The position numbers and the translations under genes are program-made. 64,000 nucleotides of DNA from Candidatus Daviesbacteria bacterium (lineage in GTDB: Bacteria; Patescibacteriota; Microgenomatia; Daviesbacterales; UBA10151), in NCBI GenBank assembly GCA_016187035.1, contig JACPKL010000010.1, positions 26,014 through 90,013 of the forward strand, given 5' to 3'. Shown one piece after another: positions 12,448-49,999 of the stretch (its first letter is position 1; the number at the start of each line of letters is the position of its first letter). Under the pieces are notes generated by a model. That model was given only the letters and a program-made list of their open reading frames with translations, ran no database searches and was not told where the DNA came from.

Positions 12448-12712
12448 CCTAGGAAGAAGGATGATTATCCCGCACTAAATTGATGAGGGAAGGAAAGTCC
12501 AGACAGCGTAGAGTAGGGTGGTTACTGCAAGGTAACGGTCGCAAGATCCAGTTAGAGCAACAGTGACGAACCGAGGTTATGCTCGGGTGAAACGTGGCAA
12601 TCCTCCCCGCTGCAATCCTAGAACCGACAGGACTACTCGTCCATTTGTCGAAGTAAGGAGCATTAGATAAATTATCATCTTGTAACAGAATCTGGCTTAC
12701 TATCTTCCTAGG
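12448..12712 (+). ncRNA. rnpB: RNase P RNA (bacterial type A-like, reduced size ~265 nt)
   Basis: The universally conserved blocks are present: GGAAAGTCCagaC (P4 5' side), GGGTGAAA and ACAGAATCTGGCTTA (P4 3' side). The terminal helix pairs cctaggaagaag with cttcctagg. ORF 12449..12715(-) is an artefact of this RNA. Confidence 0.85.
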
Positions 12713-12714
12713 CA

Positions 12715-13683
12715 CTAAACCTTCTTTCCTTCAATTATTTCATTTACGACAATATATGCAACCACAGCAATAGGTACTGCCAATAATGCTCCCATGAACC
12801 CTAAAAGCCTTGAACCTATTGCGATTGCTAAAATCACAACTAGAGGATTTAATCCCACAGCCCTTTTCATCACCTGGGGGACAATCAAATGGTTTTCCAA
12901 CTGTTGAATTACGAAATACATAGCTGTTGTGCCTATACCCAAGATAGGGGAAATTGTTAATGCTATTAAAATCGTTGGTATTGCTGAAATAATTGGACCA
13001 ATTACCGGAACTACTTCCAAAACTCCTGCAACTACTGCTAGAGGCAAGGCGTATGGAATTCCTAGAATCAATAGTCCAATATAAGTTAATATACCAATAA
13101 CCAAACTTAAGAATAACTGTCCCCTAAACCAACCACCTAGCTTTTCCTCTATTTGAATTATCAATCTTTTAATCCTTACCTCTTTCCCTATAAATAAAGC
13201 GGCAGACCGATCTTCTAAATTTTCTCGCTCTAACATTAGATAGAAGGTTAAAACAAGAAGAAATATAATTGTTAAGAGATTATCAAATATAGAAAGTGTA
13301 ATAGATAAAGCACTTTTTGATAAAGCGCTTAATTGCGCTTGAAGAACTGATTTATCTATTGCTGCCATTTCAAGCAACTGATCTAGATATGGAGGAAGAG
13401 TCAAAAAAAGTTTCCTGGTTTCTTCTAACAGAGGAGGTATCACAAGCACCAGCAACCCTGAGACTAAGGCTATAATAATAATGTAGGTTATAGCAATACT
13501 TAATGATTTAGGAACTCTATATTTAGTCAAAAACTTAACCAAAGGAGATAAAGCAGACATTAAGATTACTGCTATGAATAAAATAATTAGTAAATCCCTA
13601 ATTAAATAGATTAACCAAATACCCAATACGAACACGGCAATAAAAATAACCGTCTTATGAGAAACATCAATCTTTTGCGCCAT
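12715..13683 (-). CDS. AI-2E family transporter (PerM/UPF0118)
   Basis: 322 aa with ~8 TM segments and the C-terminal conserved block VPVIGPIISAIP...IVPQVM...GLNPLVVILA. Confidence 0.8.
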   Translation of the reverse strand: MAQKIDVSHKTVIFIAVFVLGIWLIYLIRDLLIILFIAVILMSALSPLVKFLTKYRVPKSLSIAITYIIIIALVSGLLVLVIPPLLEETRKLFLTLPPYLDQLLEMAAIDKSVLQAQLSALSKSALSITLSIFDNLLTIIFLLVLTFYLMLERENLEDRSAALFIGKEVRIKRLIIQIEEKLGGWFRGQLFLSLVIGILTYIGLLILGIPYALPLAVVAGVLEVVPVIGPIISAIPTILIALTISPILGIGTTAMYFVIQQLENHLIVPQVMKRAVGLNPLVVILAIAIGSRLLGFMGALLAVPIAVVAYIVVNEIIEGKKV

Positions 13684-28711: not shown

Positions 28712-28850
28712 TCAAAAAAACCTCTCAAAAGAGAGGTTGAAAGTTTCCCTTCGATTACGCTCAGGGCACATTGTCCTCTCGGATCTGGCACCTTAACTTA
28801 AGGTTGCCGGCTCACCTTTTTCAGGCAGCACTCTTAATGCTTGTTAATAG
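28712..28850 (-). ncRNA. SAM riboswitch (SAM-I clan, short-P2 SAM-I/IV-like) with terminator expression platform
   Basis: The minus strand reads ...AAGAGUGCUGCCUGAAAAAGGUGAGCCGGCAACCUUAAGUUAAGGUGCCAGAUCC... It contains the SAM-I/IV core strings GAGUGC, GCCGGCAACC-hairpin-GGUGCCA. These are followed by the terminator AACCUCUCuuuuGAGAGGUU+U7 (plus 28714-28738), which ends 6 nt before the metK ATG. An upstream GAGAGG could form an antiterminator with CCUCUC. Confidence 0.6.
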
Positions 28851-37837: not shown

Positions 37838-38185
37838 TTAAAATTTTAGTCCTCCTTCTCTTGCTCCTCTTGCCAACTCACTTATTCTACCTTGATATAC
37901 AAAACCACCCCTATCAAATACCACTGCTTTGATTTTAGCTTTAATTGCTTTGTCTGCTAATTGCCGACCTATTTTGTAAGCCTTTTCAATTTTAGCACCT
38001 GTCTCTTTCATATCAGATACAGCAACTACAGTTTTTCCTATATTATCATCAATGATTTGTGCATATATATGCTGATTAGATTTAAACACGGCAAGTCTTG
38101 GACGTTTTGCAGTTCCAGTTAAATATTTTCTTATCTTTGTATGTTTCTTTACTCTTAAATCTTTATTCATATAGATCTTTGTCAT
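37838..38185 (-). CDS. rplR: 50S ribosomal protein L18
   Basis: RPRLAVFKSNQHIYAQIIDD...FDRGGFVYQGRISELARGAREGGLKF. Confidence 0.9.
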   Translation of the reverse strand: MTKIYMNKDLRVKKHTKIRKYLTGTAKRPRLAVFKSNQHIYAQIIDDNIGKTVVAVSDMKETGAKIEKAYKIGRQLADKAIKAKIKAVVFDRGGFVYQGRISELARGAREGGLKF

Positions 38186-38245
38186 TCCTGCGAAGGCAGG
38201 AATCCATACAAATTATTTATGGATCCCGTATCAAGTACGGGATGA
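38181..38245. repeat. multi-hairpin GC-rich palindromic element in the rplF-rplR spacer, overlapping the rplR start codon
   Basis: gtcat-TCCTGCgaagGCAGGA-ATCCATAcaaattattTATGGAT-CCCGTAtcaagTACGGG-atgac. It comprises three local hairpins closed by the outer stem gtcat/atgac. It belongs to the widely seen repeat type that yields spurious SFLRRQESI / SRIKYGMT peptides, as in ORF 38098..38331. Confidence 0.7.
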
Positions 38246-38258
38246 CTCGCTTTGCTCA

Positions 38259-44325: not shown

Positions 44326-44984
44326 TTTTTTAATCCTTCCAAGGCATCTTTTGTAAGCAGCAATCTTGCATGTTTTAATACATCCAAGGCATTTATTAAA
44401 TTGATTGGTAAAACATCAACACCCGGGATGTTCTTAACTGCCCTTGCTAAATTATCCTGTTTTTTATCAGTTACAATTAAAGCGCTCTTAACAGCCAGTT
44501 TTTGCATTAATCTGGCTATTTCTTTAGTTTTTCCAGAGGCCTTATCTGTCCCTGATATTCCCAGAACTTCTTTGCCTTTTGCTTTTGACGAGAGAGCAGA
44601 GAATAAGGCTGCTTTTTTCATTTTCTTTGGTAAATCCAATCTAACTTTTCTACTCTTAGGACCAAAGACAATTCCTCCTCCCACAAAAATCGGCGCCCTG
44701 ATTGCACCGTGTCTAGCCCGCCCTGTTCCTTTTTGTCTATAGATTTTGGCTGTTGAACCAACTACTTCACCCCTAGTTTTAGTTGAACCATTAAGTTGCT
44801 TTTGATTAGTTGTATAAACCCTAATCGCTTGGGATAAAAGTTGTTTATTTACTTTAGCTCCAAAAATGTCTTTTGGTAAAGTTAAAGTAGTAGTACTTTT
44901 TTGACCACTTAAAGTATAAACAGGAATAGATAAATTACTCGTTGCCCGCGTACTTATTGATGATTCTTTCTTAACTCTTGGCAT
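44322..44984 (-). CDS. rplD: 50S ribosomal protein L4
   Basis: The start is trimmed to MPRVKKE (ATG 44984) with the SD GAAGGAGGGGA upstream. The L4 block is RQKGTGRARHGAIRAPIFVGGG. Confidence 0.9.
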   Translation of the reverse strand: MPRVKKESSISTRATSNLSIPVYTLSGQKSTTTLTLPKDIFGAKVNKQLLSQAIRVYTTNQKQLNGSTKTRGEVVGSTAKIYRQKGTGRARHGAIRAPIFVGGGIVFGPKSRKVRLDLPKKMKKAALFSALSSKAKGKEVLGISGTDKASGKTKEIARLMQKLAVKSALIVTDKKQDNLARAVKNIPGVDVLPINLINALDVLKHARLLLTKDALEGLKK

Positions 44985-45780
44985 TTTCCCCTCCTTCGTT
45001 ATTTGGTGTATCAGATGAAATCGGAGTATCAGTAGTTTGCTTGTCCGCCGACTCACTAACTTCTGATTTATCTGAAGCTCCTTCCTCTTCCTCGTCTACT
45101 TTTTCTTCAGGTGGTGGGGTATAACCTTTAACCCGACCAAATTTAGTTACTGTAACCAAACCTCCAATTGGGCCTGGCACAGCACCTTTAACAATTAAAT
45201 ACCCCTTAACTTTATCTATTCCAACAACTTCTAAATTCCTGACGCTGACTGACGCGCTGCCCATATGCCCTGCCATTTTCTTCCCTTTATATACCCTTCC
45301 CGGAGTAGTTCCGGAACCAATTGCCCCTGGAGCTCTTTGTCTATCTGATTGACCGTGAGTCCTTGGTCCACCATGGAATCCATGACGTTTAACAACTCCA
45401 GCAAATCCCCTGCCTTTTGAGACGCCGCTGACTTTAATTGAATCACCGATTGAAAAAACCTGGTCCAGCTTAATCTCTGTTCCAGGCTGTATAGTCCCGA
45501 GCGGACCTGTCCTGAGCGAAGTCGAAGGAGTCGAGGGATCTTCCATAATTTCGATTTCTCTAAACCAGCGAAGGGGTTGTTCAATACCAGCTTTTTTACC
45601 ATGTCCAATTTGAGGTTTTTTAACTGACTTTTTAGTACCAAACCCAAGTTGGACTGAGTTAGAATTAACTTGAGTTACAAAATTAGGACCTATCTGCAAA
45701 GCAGTAGCCCCTACTCTTCTACCCCGAGAGTCATAAGTACTAGTCATATTCTTTTTAATACCAAACAATGTGTTAAACAT
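44971..45780 (-). CDS. rplC: 50S ribosomal protein L3 (with in-frame repeat insertion and acidic C-terminal tail)
   Basis: The start is trimmed to MFNTLFGIKKNMT (ATG 45780), which aligns with the E. coli L3 N-terminus. FAGVVKRHGFHGGPRTHGQSDRQRAPGAIG is present. Confidence 0.9.
   Translation of the reverse strand: MFNTLFGIKKNMTSTYDSRGRRVGATALQIGPNFVTQVNSNSVQLGFGTKKSVKKPQIGHGKKAGIEQPLRWFREIEIMEDPSTPSTSLRTGPLGTIQPGTEIKLDQVFSIGDSIKVSGVSKGRGFAGVVKRHGFHGGPRTHGQSDRQRAPGAIGSGTTPGRVYKGKKMAGHMGSASVSVRNLEVVGIDKVKGYLIVKGAVPGPIGGLVTVTKFGRVKGYTPPPEEKVDEEEEGASDKSEVSESADKQTTDTPISSDTPNNEGGENAKS
45494..45540 (-). repeat. GC-rich mini-repeat inserted in frame in rplC
   Basis: The plus strand gtcccgagcggacctgtcctgagcgaagtcgaaggagtcgagggatc is read on the minus strand as [16 protein letters not shown]. 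The same core, with unit expansions, lies in fusA at 49314-49393. Confidence 0.8.
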
Positions 45781-45814: not shown

Positions 45815-45830
45815 AGTAATTGTGCCTTCA

Positions 45831-45867
45831 ATTGTCGTATCCTTCGACTTTGCTCAGGACGCACAAT
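45831..45867. repeat. inverted partial copy of the rplC/fusA repeat core, flanked by a short inverted repeat, in the rpsJ-rplC spacer
   Basis: attgtcg-tatccttcgactttgctcaggacg-cacaat. The core ccttcgactTtgctcaggac matches the reverse complement of the coding copies (ccttcgactTcgctcaggac) apart from a T/C difference. Confidence 0.6.
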
Positions 45868-45955
45868 CTACTGAAATTTTTATTAATCATTAATTAACCA
45901 CTTGAAATGGTCATGTAGGGGAATTGTAACAAAGCTAGAGGTTAAATGCAAGCTG

Positions 45956-46264
45956 CTACATCTTAACTTCAATGTCAACACCTGCAGGAATCTCAAGGTG
46001 CATTAAAGAGTCTATGGTTTTTTGGGTGGGCTCAACAATGTCAACCATTCTTTTGTGGGTCCTAATTTCAAATGCTTCTCTGGCATTTTTATCAGTATGA
46101 GGAGATTTTAAAACTGTCATTCTTTCAGTCTTAGTAGGTAGGGGAATAGGACCAACTATTTTGGCTCCTGTTCTTAAAGCTGTATCCAAAAGAGAATCAC
46201 AGGTATTATCAAGTACCCTATGATCGTAACTTTTAAGTTTAACACGTATTCTGCCTCTTGGCAT
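45956..46264 (-). CDS. rpsJ: 30S ribosomal protein S10
   Basis: [14 protein letters not shown]...PLPTK...SPH.DK..REQFE-like blocks. Confidence 0.9.
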
Positions 46265-47824: not shown

Positions 47825-49999
47825 TTAGCGCTCAACCCGGCCGGTAAAGCCTGAGGACTCGACAATTTTTTGAGTAATATTTTGTGGAACCGGTTCATAA
47901 TGGTCTGCTTCCATATAATAAGTAGCCCTGCCCTGAGACATACTCCTGATAGCTGTAGCATATCCATGCATTTCAGCCAGAGGCACTAAGGCCAATACCA
48001 CCCTGGCATTTCCCCTTGACTCAGATGATAAAATCTGAGCTCTTTTTGAGGATAAATCACCAATAATCTCACCTAAAAATTCATCGGGAGTGGTTACTTC
48101 CACTTTCATTATTGGCTCAAGTAAAATCATATCTGCAATTTTGGCTGCCTCAGACAAGCCTAAAGAGGCTGCAATTTTAAAAGCTATCTCAGAGGAATCA
48201 ACATCATGAAAAGAACCGTCATAAACAGTCACTTTAATATCTGTAACAGGGAAGCCTGCTAAAATCCCTGTATCTTCTTTTTCAATCACTCCTTTTTCAA
48301 TTGGCGGTATAAACTCTCTTGGAATGGCTCCGCCAACCACCTCTGAAACAAATTCCCTGCCTTGCCCTCTTGGCAATGGTTCAATCTTCAAAAGACAATG
48401 TCCATATTGACCCCTGCCACCTGTCTGCCTGATATATTTACCCTCTCCTTCAGCATATTTAGTAATAGTCTCTTTATAAGCTACCTGCGGCTGGCCAACA
48501 TTAGCATCAACTTTAAACTCTCTTTTCATTCTATCTACTAAAATTTCCAGTTGTAATTCTCCCATGCCGGCAATAATAGTTTGGCCTGTTTCAGCATCAG
48601 ACTTAACCCTGAAAGTAGGATCTTCCTCAGCCAGTCTTTGTAAAGACAATCCCAGTCTCTCCTGATCTGATTTAGTTTTGGGTTCAATAGCCAAAGAAAT
48701 GACCGGATCTGGAAAAGTGATAGACTCTAAAATAATTGGCGAAGTTTCATCGCATAAAGTATCTCCGGTAATAGTATCTTTAAGCCCAACAGCTGCCACA
48801 ATTTCTCCGGCAAAAGCCTCTTCAATTTCTTCCCTGTCATTAGCATGCATTAAAAGCAGCCTGCCTACCCGTTCTTTAATTTGTTTGGTAGAGTTATAAA
48901 CATAAGAACCGCTCTTTAAAGTTCCTGAGTAAACTCTAATATAAGTTAATTTCCCCACATGAGGATCAACCTGAATTTTAAAAGCCAAAGCAGATAAAGA
49001 AGCTTTAGGATCTGTTTTCTCAATATCCTGGGGAGAAGGCAGATATTCCACCACACAATCTAACATTTTTTGGACACCTTTATTTCTTAGAGATGACCCT
49101 GCTAAAACTGGAACAATCTTACTCCCAATGACAGCTCTTCTTAAAGCAAGTTTCAACTCTTCAACGGACATATCTTGCCCGCCCAAGTATTTTTCCATTA
49201 AGATATCATCAGTACCGGCAATTTCTTCAACTAATTTTTCCCTGGCTGCTTTAACTTCTTCCGCCATATCAGCAGGAATTTCTACTTCATTAAATTTAGC
49301 GCCGGTATCACTTGTCCCGAGCGGACCTGTCCTGAGCGGACCTGTCCTGAGCGAAGTCGAAGGAGTCGAAGGAGTCGAAGGAGCCGAGGGATCACCTTCC
49401 CAAATATAGGCTTTTTCAGTCAGTAAATCTACCACACCTTTAAAATCATTTTCCCGTCCAATGGGTAAATTGTAGGCAATGGCATTGGCCCCTAACCTAT
49501 CCCTGGCAGACTGGATTGTAGCCTGAAAATCTGCACCCACCACATCCATTTTATTGGAAAAAGCAATCAAAGGCACATTGTATTTGTTAGCCTGCCTCCA
49601 GACAGTCTCTGTTTGAGACTGCACTCCTGAGGAAGAATCCAACACAATTACCGCACCATCTAATACTCTCAAAGACCTTTCCACCTCAGCAGTAAAATCT
49701 ACATGTCCGGGAGTATCAATTAAATTAATTCTATTTTCCAAAGACTCAAAAAGACCCTGTTTAACTGTCCAAAAGGCAGTAATTGCAGCAGATACAATGG
49801 TGATACCACGTTCCCTTTCCTGCTCCATCCAGTCAGTAGTAGTAGTTCCCTCGTCAATATCACCAATTTTATAAGTTCTGCCCGTATAAAAAAGAATTCT
49901 TTCAGTGGTGGTGGTCTTCCCTGCATCAATGTGAGCGATTATCCCAATGTTTCTAATCCTATCTAAGGGGAAATCTCTGTTAGTCTTTTGTAAGCCCAT
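47825..49999 (-). CDS. fusA: elongation factor G (with in-frame repeat insertion in the G' region)
   Basis: [20 protein letters not shown] and NKMD, with domains II-V present. 724 aa. Confidence 0.95.
49314..49393 (-). repeat. expanded copy of the GC-rich mini-repeat inserted in frame in fusA
   Basis: The plus strand is gtcccga-(gcggacctgtcctga)x2-gcgaa-(gtcgaagga)x3-gccgagggatc. It is read on the minus strand as [27 protein letters not shown]. Confidence 0.8.

Follow-up and report, generated by a model that had tools for sequence, protein, structure and literature searches.

How does a block of GC-rich tandem repeats come to be translated in the middle of elongation factor G (EF-G)? The question is raised by fusA, the EF-G gene, in a stretch of 64,000 nucleotides of contig JACPKL010000010.1, from a metagenome-assembled genome (MAG) of a Candidatus Daviesbacteria bacterium, a member of the candidate phyla radiation (CPR). 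The whole 64-kb stretch is called the window below, and it is the part of the source genome that the analysis covered. An earlier note on it had described an in-frame 80-nt block in fusA with a second copy in rplC, the gene for ribosomal protein L3, and had taken both for a mobile or recombinogenic nucleotide element that colonises surface loops of translation proteins. We find that the block is built of stacked copies of a ~24-nt unit whose core recurs in bacteria of many phyla, and that sister forms of the unit flank small genes for GIY-YIG nucleases in close relatives. The probability that the inserts are stacked units of a GC-rich hairpin repeat, lying within the Ssn-related motifs (SRM) or being their closest sister, is in our estimate roughly 70%.

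Structure of the fusA insert

Alignment with orthologues sets the length of the insert at 81 rather than 80 nt (Table 1); its sequence and repeats are as first described, and the fusA open reading frame (ORF) runs intact through its 27 codons. The insert has a GC content of 63%. No GC island in the window is larger than the one formed by the block, which spans 105 nt at 62% GC; the window as a whole has 35% and fusA 41%. On the plus strand it reads ACT TGTCCCGAGCG, twice GACCTGTCCTGAGCG, AA, three times GTCGAAGGA, and GCCGAGGG. Tandem Repeats Finder (TRF) resolves the block into a 15-nt unit present 2.7 times (49313-49353) and a 9-nt unit present 4.1 times (49355-49391), with matches of 92-96% between tandem units. 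The whole unit of ~24 nt consists of CCTG(T)CCTGAGC, a short centre and GTCGAAGG. One full layer adds 15 + 9 = 24 nt and therefore preserves the frame; the insert amounts to three layers and one additional 9-mer.

The layers differ in sequence. The outermost halves (CCCGAG ... CGAGGG) are a variant that is also found in three of the Daviesbacteria loci compared here (L222, L223, and L234), whereas the inner halves are of the consensus type (CCTGAG ... CGAAGG). Because the inner units are consensus-type and the outer variant is shared with relatives, the inner units are not recent duplicates of the outer one. This arrangement suggests that the inner units were added inside an older fusA unit.

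In the protein, the insert falls in the G' region, where it had been placed before: residues 204-229 have no counterpart in Thermus thermophilus EF-G, and the alignment breaks at chain residues 191/190. The AlphaFold model of EF-G was built from 43 close relatives and is poor overall (mean predicted local distance difference test score, pLDDT, of 44.6), and is used solely for a local statement on the insert: residues 203-235 have a pLDDT <50, show no secondary structure and lie between two strands. As a separate observation, the window EF-G is without a segment of ~15 aa at the start of domain II (after LPSPQDI, ~residue 325) that is present in most Daviesbacteria EF-Gs and in T. thermophilus EF-G; minus the insert, it has 697 aa compared with the usual 712.

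A second copy in rplC

The copy in rplC shares the orientation and reading frame of the fusA copy, as had been noted, and is shorter. The repeat unit is free of stops in five of the six reading frames, so the common frame is weak evidence alone. The two copies also share an exact 29-mer, with 0 expected (100 shuffles), and an exact 36-mer is common to the two inserts. Measured against orthologues, the net insert in rplC is 45 nt (45493-45537) and consists of exactly two layers. The copies had been said to differ only by whole-unit number; they do so differ, but one substitution separates them as well (GCCGAGGG in fusA, GTCGAGGG in rplC). Compared with L3 structures in the PDB, the insert adds ~13 residues. 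In six other Daviesbacteria alleles, the length of the matching loop varies from 6 to 20 aa and the motif is absent. Among the Daviesbacteria loci examined, in-frame copies occur only in fusA and in the rplC of this genome.

The window holds in total two full copies, two solo cores and two hairpins that resemble NTS, a Neisseria repeat described below. Both solo cores (45841-45858 and 28748-28765) are non-coding and lie on the strand opposite to the full copies. One of them lies in a hairpin upstream of rplC (45829-45875; stem TTGTCGTA / CGCACAA), the stem of which is kept in L316, but with another loop, the mini-hairpin TTCGCCTAGGCGAA. L225 has a hairpin with the motif and a T-run after it, 26 nt upstream of rplC. 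The hairpin upstream of rplC may be a leader structure whose loop is a landing pad. At its C-terminus (44971-45140), L3 of the window carries an acidic low-complexity tail of ~55 aa (PPPEEKVDEEEEGASDKSEVSE...), which is also found in L3 of L222, L223, and L225; for most bacterial L3 chains in the PDB, the length is about 205-220 aa.

The core unit across bacteria

The core of the insert, an exact 23-mer (Table 1), is present in species-representative genomes from more than 15 phyla, in at least 120 stretches, and the flanks of these copies are unrelated. The hosts listed include Acidobacteriota, Chloroflexota, Planctomycetota, Bacteroidota, several proteobacterial classes, Verrucomicrobiota, Cyanobacteria, Nitrospirota, Myxococcota, Eremiobacterota, and CPR lineages; 119 of the 120 genome matches listed are MAGs and one is an isolate, Flagellimonas flava. 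An exact 18-mer, CCTGAGCGAAGTCGAAGG, is found in 101 stretches of viral contigs in IMG/VR, with GC contents from 24 to 74%. Information content falls to ~0 outside RAG-23-mer-R, and the core is therefore a discrete unit with unrelated flanks. About one copy in ten lies at the centre of an inverted sister motif (...TTCGACnAG-unit-GCTCAGG...), and a few lie in the loops of other palindromes.

Most copies of the family are intergenic, which does not bear out the proposal that the element colonises translation proteins specifically. Exact cores within proteins (Table 1) are found in both orientations and in at least four reading frames, one of the products being RLRSGQ. In the Daviesbacteria loci, a loose search gave 23 matches in 382 kb vs. 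~4 in shuffles. Head-to-tail arrays of whole 23-24-nt units are present in an alphaproteobacterial MAG (L104:300-380) and in a low-GC viral contig (L049:7363-7420), where the in-frame reading is PSTSIRPSTSLRPSTSLR. Tandem amplification can thus involve whole units too.

The fusA site in Daviesbacteria relatives

Of the 120 EF-Gs closest to that of the window, 100 read W-E-G-D-(E/D/Q)-T-G-A-K-F and have an empty site (in DNA, TGGGAAGGTGAT / GAAACNGG). The remaining 20 carry extra residues at the site, most often 8 aa, such as PSTSLGTS. The single 24-nt units, found at this same codon in about one in six Daviesbacteria EF-Gs, belong to at least three sequence classes and are read in two frames. 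The classes of insert at the site include CCCTCGRCTYCGCTCGGGACAAGT (read PSxxLGTS), CCTTCGACARGCTCAGGRCAARGT (read PSTxSGQx), and a double unit; individual inserts are given in Table 1. In the class of L225 and L243, the centre is shorter by one base, which is made up downstream, and the same DNA is therefore read SGQ, not LGT. Judged by these alleles, conservation is at the nucleotide level and not at the peptide level. The motif-type inserts in fusA all have one orientation. Comparison of filled with empty alleles indicates a clean 24-nt insertion with no duplication past an ambiguous 1-3 nt; the rplC insert has none. The insert in L241 and L242 is unrelated to the motif, which shows that GC-rich elements of more than one kind can settle in the EF-G loop.

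Filled alleles are scattered on a shallow neighbour-joining tree of EF-G. For each of the 20 filled alleles, the closest sequence outside the insert is that of an empty allele and not of another filled one; the margin is clear in some cases, such as P0086 (92.8% to an empty vs. 87.0% to a filled allele) and P0037 (94.1% vs. 89.0%). Many Daviesbacteria share the fusA site as a landing site that is either old or recurrent, and only the expansion in fusA and the copy in rplC are particular to this genome. A peptide conserved at the site without the nucleotide repeat was not found, nor is the core confined to these loci and fixed there as coding sequence. The view of the earlier note that this is a mobile or recombinogenic nucleotide element is supported. 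The repeat is one of DNA and not a selected peptide: related DNA is read in another frame at the same site, and the core recurs outside coding sequence in the window, as well as across hundreds of unrelated genomes.

In four relatives (L222, L223, L225, and L227), the fusA-tuf-rpsJ-rplC stretch is broken in the fusA/tuf and tuf/rplC gaps by small selfish-looking genes, which include PhdYeFM/ParE toxin-antitoxin pairs, RelA_SpoT, 23S_rRNA_IVP, DUF3276, and GIY-YIG. Between fusA and rplC, the window has none of these genes.

GIY-YIG cassettes flanked by sister motifs

A loose scan located sister motifs in the operon spacers of Daviesbacteria loci. GIY-YIG ORFs have inverted sister motifs on both sides in L223, L248, L187, L290, and L247, and at the one visible end in L234; they are likewise flanked in L308, L316, and L324. 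The flanking motif has the form GTCAT-stem-GAA-stem-ATC(TC). The ORF of L223 encodes 91 aa and lies between rpsJ and rplC. The GIY-YIG protein has 1588 homologues at E <1e-10, all with the Pfam domain GIY-YIG (PF01541); the best 120 of these are about 73-137 aa long, and the few with a named source come from Daviesbacteria, Gottesmanbacteria and other Patescibacteria. In relatives, cassettes occupy the rpsJ-rplC and recR-ybaB gaps as well as the gap between rpsG and a His_Phos_1 gene immediately upstream of fusA; distances of cassettes from both fusA and rplC are 0.3-3 kb. The rpsJ-rplC cassette of L223 and of L316-L323 is ~400 bp long and antisense to the operon. The window has the empty site of this cassette (Table 1).

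The cassette ends have a fixed frame around a variable part, GTCATCCTGA-variable-GAAGGATCTC. In the hairpin at L316:912-985, this frame encloses 44 nt, a composite that is identical at 40 of 44 positions to the rplC insert of the window. This composite, the variable part of the rpsJ-rplC cassette in L316-L323, reads TCCCGAGCGGACTTGTCCTGAGTGCAATCGAAGGAGTCGAGGGA and was assembled identically in 8 samples from four sources. The hairpins of the GIY-YIG cassettes fold better than shuffled sequences (z = -2.1 and -2.8). In L290 (1400-1520), the hairpin of the downstream cassette end has a family unit, CTTCGACTAACGCTCAGG, nested in its centre, an independent example of a unit within a unit.

Probable relation to the Ssn system

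Ssn proteins are single-domain GIY-YIG ssDNA (single-stranded DNA) nucleases of ~94 aa (cd10448), which bind one strand of a hairpin repeat and cut ssDNA beside it, activities established with the homologues from Neisseria and Wolbachia (Chenal et al., 2025, Nat Commun 16:2388; PMC11893778). The ssn genes are flanked by hairpin repeats of 20-50 nt in an NTS-ssnA-NTS layout that resembles an insertion sequence (IS), and are widely distributed among phyla. The repeat in Neisseria is NTS, CGTCATTCCCGCGMAVGCGGGAATCYRG, and the broader class is that of SRM; Rickettsia and Wolbachia are among the repeat-rich hosts. Just 2% of NTS copies lie inside genes, and the mode of repeat multiplication was left open (Chenal et al., 2025). 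These repeats are a close relative of the inserts, for which the earlier note had been aware of no characterised equivalent.

The ~24-nt unit may be a recognition hairpin of the Ssn type. In variant units, CCC is matched by GGG and CCT by AGG, so that pairing is preserved as is expected of a hairpin. The published SRM pattern, HGTCWYN(0-2)YYVSBRHN(0-5)WNVSBRGN(0-2)RNCYNB, was derived from 29 genomes of 4 phyla. Its sole match in the window is a hairpin at 38219-38247 on the minus strand, which is part of an inverted pair (Table 1). In the second arm of the pair, TTGTCATTCCTGCGAAGGCAGGAATCCAT, 24 of 28 positions agree with the NTS consensus from Neisseria; of the four that differ, two compensate each other as a pair. 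We read the inserts as a divergent variant of the Ssn system that the published pattern misses and that, in this CPR bacterium, has entered two translation proteins of essential function.

Several results weigh against this reading. The SRM pattern is matched neither by the fusA and rplC units, the solo cores and the 23-mer, nor by the hairpins that flank GIY-YIG genes in L223, L187, and L290. On neither strand does the fusA or the rplC insert fold more stably than its shuffles (z = +0.4 to +1.1), and the minimal 23-mer, which retains TGTC but not GTCAT, is predicted to form only a weak hairpin (-0.8 kcal/mol, z = +0.5). Complementarity of the flanks around the 23-mer is weakly enriched, with stems of at least 6 bp at 5% of copies vs. 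1% in the control. A GIY-YIG gene is present at just 2-3 of 221 exact-core loci, not above expectation, and no GIY-YIG ORF was found in the 64-kb window. NCBIfam gives the Daviesbacteria GIY-YIG proteins only a sub-threshold match to group I intron endonucleases (GIY-YIG). No clear target motif or target-site duplication was found at the inserts: GAAG(GT)GAT precedes both and GTGAT flanks the fusA insert on both sides, but these are too short and ambiguous to be claimed as a target motif and a duplication, respectively. The 5' and 3' halves in fusA are unequal in number (3 vs. 4), so slippage is needed besides nesting. The scatter of filled fusA alleles may reflect several gains, several precise losses or allele exchange, which the EF-G tree does not separate.

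Other features and rejected candidates

The coordinates of the features in the window, together with related inserts at other loci, are collected in Table 1. Outside the subjects treated above, the window has an RNase P RNA of bacterial class A (12449-12715) that covers the full model (1-367) in only 267 nt and scores 108 bits against a threshold of 100; it is markedly reduced.

Table 1. Features of the fusA and rplC inserts, related elements of the window, and inserts or exact cores at other loci.
Feature	Position or locus	Strand	Remarks
fusA, EF-G, 724 aa; host gene	47825..49999	minus	ORF; 100% identity to NCBI Candidatus Daviesbacteria EF-G P0001; PDB EF-G matches to E = 1.8e-261
In-frame insert in EF-G G' loop, 81 nt = 27 codons	49310..49390	minus	Orthologue alignment; missing from 100 of 120 close EF-G relatives; no PDB EF-G counterpart
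Outer-layer 5' half TGTCCCGAGCG, degenerate form common to relatives' 24-nt insert	49313..49323	plus	Same CCCGAG...CGAGGG variant in L222, L223, L234
Two tandem 15-nt units GCGGACCTGTCCTGA, stacked consensus-type 5' halves	49321..49350	plus	
Exact 23-mer core CCTGTCCTGAGCGAAGTCGAAGG, pan-bacterial	49341..49363	plus	Same 23-mer in at least 120 genome stretches, many phyla
Three tandem 9-nt units GTCGAAGGA, stacked 3' halves	49356..49382	plus	
Outer-layer 3' half GCCGAGGGATC	49383..49393	plus	GAGGG pairs with CCC of outer 5' half; compensatory CCC/GGG vs. CCT/AGG
rplC, ribosomal protein L3, 269 aa from MFNTLFGIKK; second host gene	44971..45780	minus	PDB L3 matches to E = 8.5e-40
Two-layer in-frame copy in rplC, 16 residues	45493..45540	minus	Not in L3 of six other Daviesbacteria alleles; 40/44 identity to GIY-YIG cassette hairpin core
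Solo degenerate core GTCCTGAGCAAAGTCGAAGGA, non-coding, apical loop of conserved hairpin in rpsJ-rplC spacer	45840..45860	minus	L316: same stem, different loop
Empty site of GIY-YIG cassette in rpsJ-rplC spacer, junction AAATGCAAGCTGCT / ACATCTTAAC	45944..45967		Alignment with both L223 cassette flanks; cassette site at 45957/45958
Two canonical NTS-like hairpins, inverted, 11 nt apart, no gene between, rplF-rplR spacer	38179..38248		Gene-less pair of cassette ends (REPIN- or MITE-like)
Solo degenerate core GCCCTGAGCGTAATCGAAGGG, non-coding	28747..28767	minus	Adjoins terminator-like hairpin
fusA insert CCCTCGGCTTCGCTCGGGACAAGT	L222		
fusA insert CCCTCGACTCCGCTCGGGACAAGT	L223		
fusA insert CCCTCGACTTTGCTCGGGACAGGT	L234		
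fusA insert CCTTCGACAGGCTCAGGACAAAGT	L225		
fusA insert CCTTCGACAAGCTCAGGGCAAGGT	L243		
fusA insert, double unit	L227		
Unrelated 69-nt GC-rich palindromic fusA insert, read PARNASPARKDNSVSGGQSDAGG	L241 (L241:5388-6215), L242		EF-G P0037; three codons upstream of motif site
Exact core in frame, methionyl-tRNA synthetase (MetRS)	L140		Between anticodon-binding and tRNA-binding domains; the isolate (Flagellimonas flava)
Exact core in frame, CN_hydrolase (nitrilase-type hydrolase)	L186		
Exact core in frame, class II ribonucleotide reductase barrel	L201		
Exact core in frame, DNA methylase	L151		
Exact core in frame, phage portal-MuF protein	L093		
Exact core in frame, nonribosomal peptide synthetases			

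Several other candidates were tried and rejected. A palindromic hairpin of the kind found in Rickettsia palindromic elements (RPEs) or REPs is ruled out, as z is >0 for both inserts on both strands. No known RNA family was recognised either: Rfam gave no family over the motif in the window and in 14 motif-carrying loci (gathering and E-value thresholds). A structured RNA with a conserved apical loop on variable stems was not borne out, since stems of at least 6 bp occur in just 5-6% of copies vs. ~1% of permuted controls; what remains is that a fraction of the copies lie in hairpin loops. A loose scan of the window for GTCAY, a hairpin and ATC gave 19 matches vs. ~21 in shuffles, and only the compact hairpins at 38.2 kb are credible. 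A recurrent neighbour of the exact core was sought by clustering ORFs within 400 nt at 221 loci, which returned only prophage structural genes of high-GC contigs. Searched for as strings in the literature, the peptides and the DNA core gave nothing relevant.

Origin of the inserts and alternative explanations

A sequence of events may be proposed for the two inserts. A single 24-nt unit would have landed in the G' loop of EF-G in Daviesbacteria, once or several times. In this lineage, consensus-type units would then have been added inside the old unit by re-insertion into its centre or by templated repair of it, and replication slippage of the 15-nt and 9-nt halves would have enlarged the fusA copy further. 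A two-layer copy could subsequently have moved 3.8 kb into the variable loop of rplC, its source being either the fusA copy or a cassette hairpin. Copies within genes would persist only if they were a multiple of three bases, stop-free and located in a tolerant surface loop, and the translated product would be a disordered peptide rich in Pro, Ser, Thr, and Gly, a tolerated passenger with no required function. By analogy with the Neisseria and Wolbachia Ssn proteins, the cognate nuclease would bind the hairpin on one ssDNA strand and cut beside it. Candidate routes for the movement of units are insertion driven by the nuclease, short-patch conversion from nearby cassette ends, or both.

Models of the movement itself can be offered only with reserve. 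We propose, as a tentative idea that we think more likely wrong than right, that the ~24-nt unit is itself mobile and the smallest such element known, moved by Ssn-type nucleases with no target duplication and in fixed orientation, with precise exit possible. Its targets would be exposed ssDNA, for instance in a hairpin loop, at the centre of a resident unit or at the preferred site in fusA. If true, this would account for the onion-like nesting, the scatter of filled and empty fusA alleles, and the in-frame presence of an identical 23-mer in proteins of many phyla, and Ssn-type nucleases would be remodelers of essential proteins. It is also possible, although we would not count on it, that no transposition took place and that the units were copied by short-patch gene conversion or template switching from the hairpin of a nearby operon cassette, anchored on the old fusA unit or on the GAAG(GT)GAT microhomology. 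The middle layer of the L316 composite corresponds to the old fusA unit (TCCCGAGCG..GCCGAGGGA), so that a single conversion would add exactly 24 nt. The proximity of cassettes to both genes in relatives, the GAAG(GT)GAT before both inserts and the failure to find a target duplication fit conversion too. The microhomology is short, however, the window has the empty site but no cassette, and conversion leaves unexplained how the first unit arrived in fusA and why the same unit is found in unrelated proteins of other phyla.

An ordinary coding minisatellite, in which a stretch of fusA was expanded by slippage and the rplC copy is a coincidence or a one-off duplication, would need no dispersed element. 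The closely matching head-to-tail units, both multiples of three, and the 3 vs. 4 halves are what slippage would leave, and slippage almost certainly contributed. The minisatellite is contradicted as a full account by the consensus-perfect inner units within outer units that carry the variants of relatives, by different subfamilies at the same codon in relatives, and by the core itself, which recurs at more than 200 unrelated loci, in the cassette hairpin and outside coding sequence in the window; we regard this explanation as improbable. Selection of the peptide itself, as a flexible linker rich in Pro, Ser, and Thr that serves EF-G G' or L3 function (e.g., L7/L12 contacts), would agree with translation in the same frame in both genes at a surface-exposed site. 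It is nevertheless very improbable: the peptide is missing from 100 of 120 close relatives, homologous DNA is read in the other frame in relatives (SGQ vs. LGT) and in at least four frames elsewhere, and the nucleotide identity of the fusA and rplC copies exceeds what peptide constraint needs.

Least probable are a non-autonomous transposon and an artefact. The former would have inserted in frame as a member of the RPE class or as a miniature inverted-repeat transposable element (MITE), with terminal inverted repeats. RPEs likewise occupy surface loops of housekeeping proteins in frame (PMC10969869), and Rickettsia is listed among the SRM-rich genomes (PMC11893778). Neither insert has terminal inverted repeats of its own, and in a generic test for MITEs these and a target-site duplication were found at neither the fusA nor the rplC insert; furthermore, the unit is ~24 nt vs. 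~150 bp, there is no palindrome-driven fold, and the host is a CPR bacterium. Repeat-induced mis-assembly or wrong binning has in its favor that the source and nearly all listed genome matches are MAGs, and that tandem unit number is error-prone in short-read assembly. Against it stand the intact frame in both genes, the same-codon inserts in independent assemblies of relatives, the identical cassette composite in separate samples, and the core itself, which lies in frame in the MetRS of an isolate and is also present in prophage contigs that derive from isolates.

Implications

If the inserts are what we take them to be, selfish DNA of ~24 bases can lodge in essential proteins. The repeats of the Ssn system are described as almost never inside genes; here a divergent branch is in frame in two essential translation proteins. 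The filled and empty sites among close relatives, the subfamilies, the layered units and the clean empty cassette site are natural experiments on the movement of repeats. The published search pattern misses a large pan-bacterial subfamily, from which spurious peptides familiar in metagenome proteins, VLSEVEG among them, probably derive. There are consequences for the annotation of repeats and for the reading of loop insertions in phylogenetic marker proteins.

Comparison with known systems

GC clusters of yeast mitochondrial DNA are GC-rich mini-elements in an AT-rich genome that occasionally lie in frame in a protein gene. They differ from the inserts in being organellar and palindromic, and in lacking GIY-YIG cassette ends. 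The small dispersed repeats (SDR) of Nostoc/Anabaena, an account attributed to Elhai et al. in 2008, are reportedly 21-27 nt long, mobile-looking, sharp-ended and mutually nested, and we know of no partner gene identified for them. These are cyanobacterial families with other sequences.

The analogy with RPEs drawn by the earlier note is sound for behavior and fails for membership. RPEs are ~150 bp long and occur in frame in surface loops of housekeeping proteins (PMC10969869). Both kinds of repeat are tolerated in frame in surface regions of unrelated housekeeping genes, translation of the present inserts being deduced from the intact frame. RPEs, however, are palindromic and have a conserved peptide module. 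The present unit measures ~24 nt, its DNA is read in several frames, and it is associated with GIY-YIG cassettes; it lacks both terminal inverted repeats and a target duplication of its own. The REP/REPIN-RAYT systems, whose partners are IS200/IS605-like Y1 transposases, share with the present family the short hairpin repeats, a single-copy partner gene within its own repeats, inverted doublets (here at 38179-38248), and recognition of ssDNA. They differ in that the partner here is a GIY-YIG nuclease and not a Y1 transposase, and in that REPs are essentially extragenic. No RAYT turned up, and no systematic search for Y1 transposases was made.

The closest comparison is with the Ssn/NTS system. 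The differences are that the Daviesbacteria cassette ends and the fusA and rplC units fail the published pattern, that the stem here has a tandem G.A step (CCTGA...GAAGG), that units are stacked or nested, and that they lie in frame in essential genes while NTS copies are rarely intragenic. The host is, in addition, a CPR bacterium with no ssn gene in the window. The likenesses are the short, oriented, GC-rich hairpin repeats with a 5' GTC(AT) box, of which the 23-mer retains only TGTC, their inverted arrangement on either side of a gene of ~90-95 aa that consists of GIY-YIG only, which in the cassettes of relatives gives an IS-like layout, the dispersed solo copies, and the occurrence of the system in many phyla.

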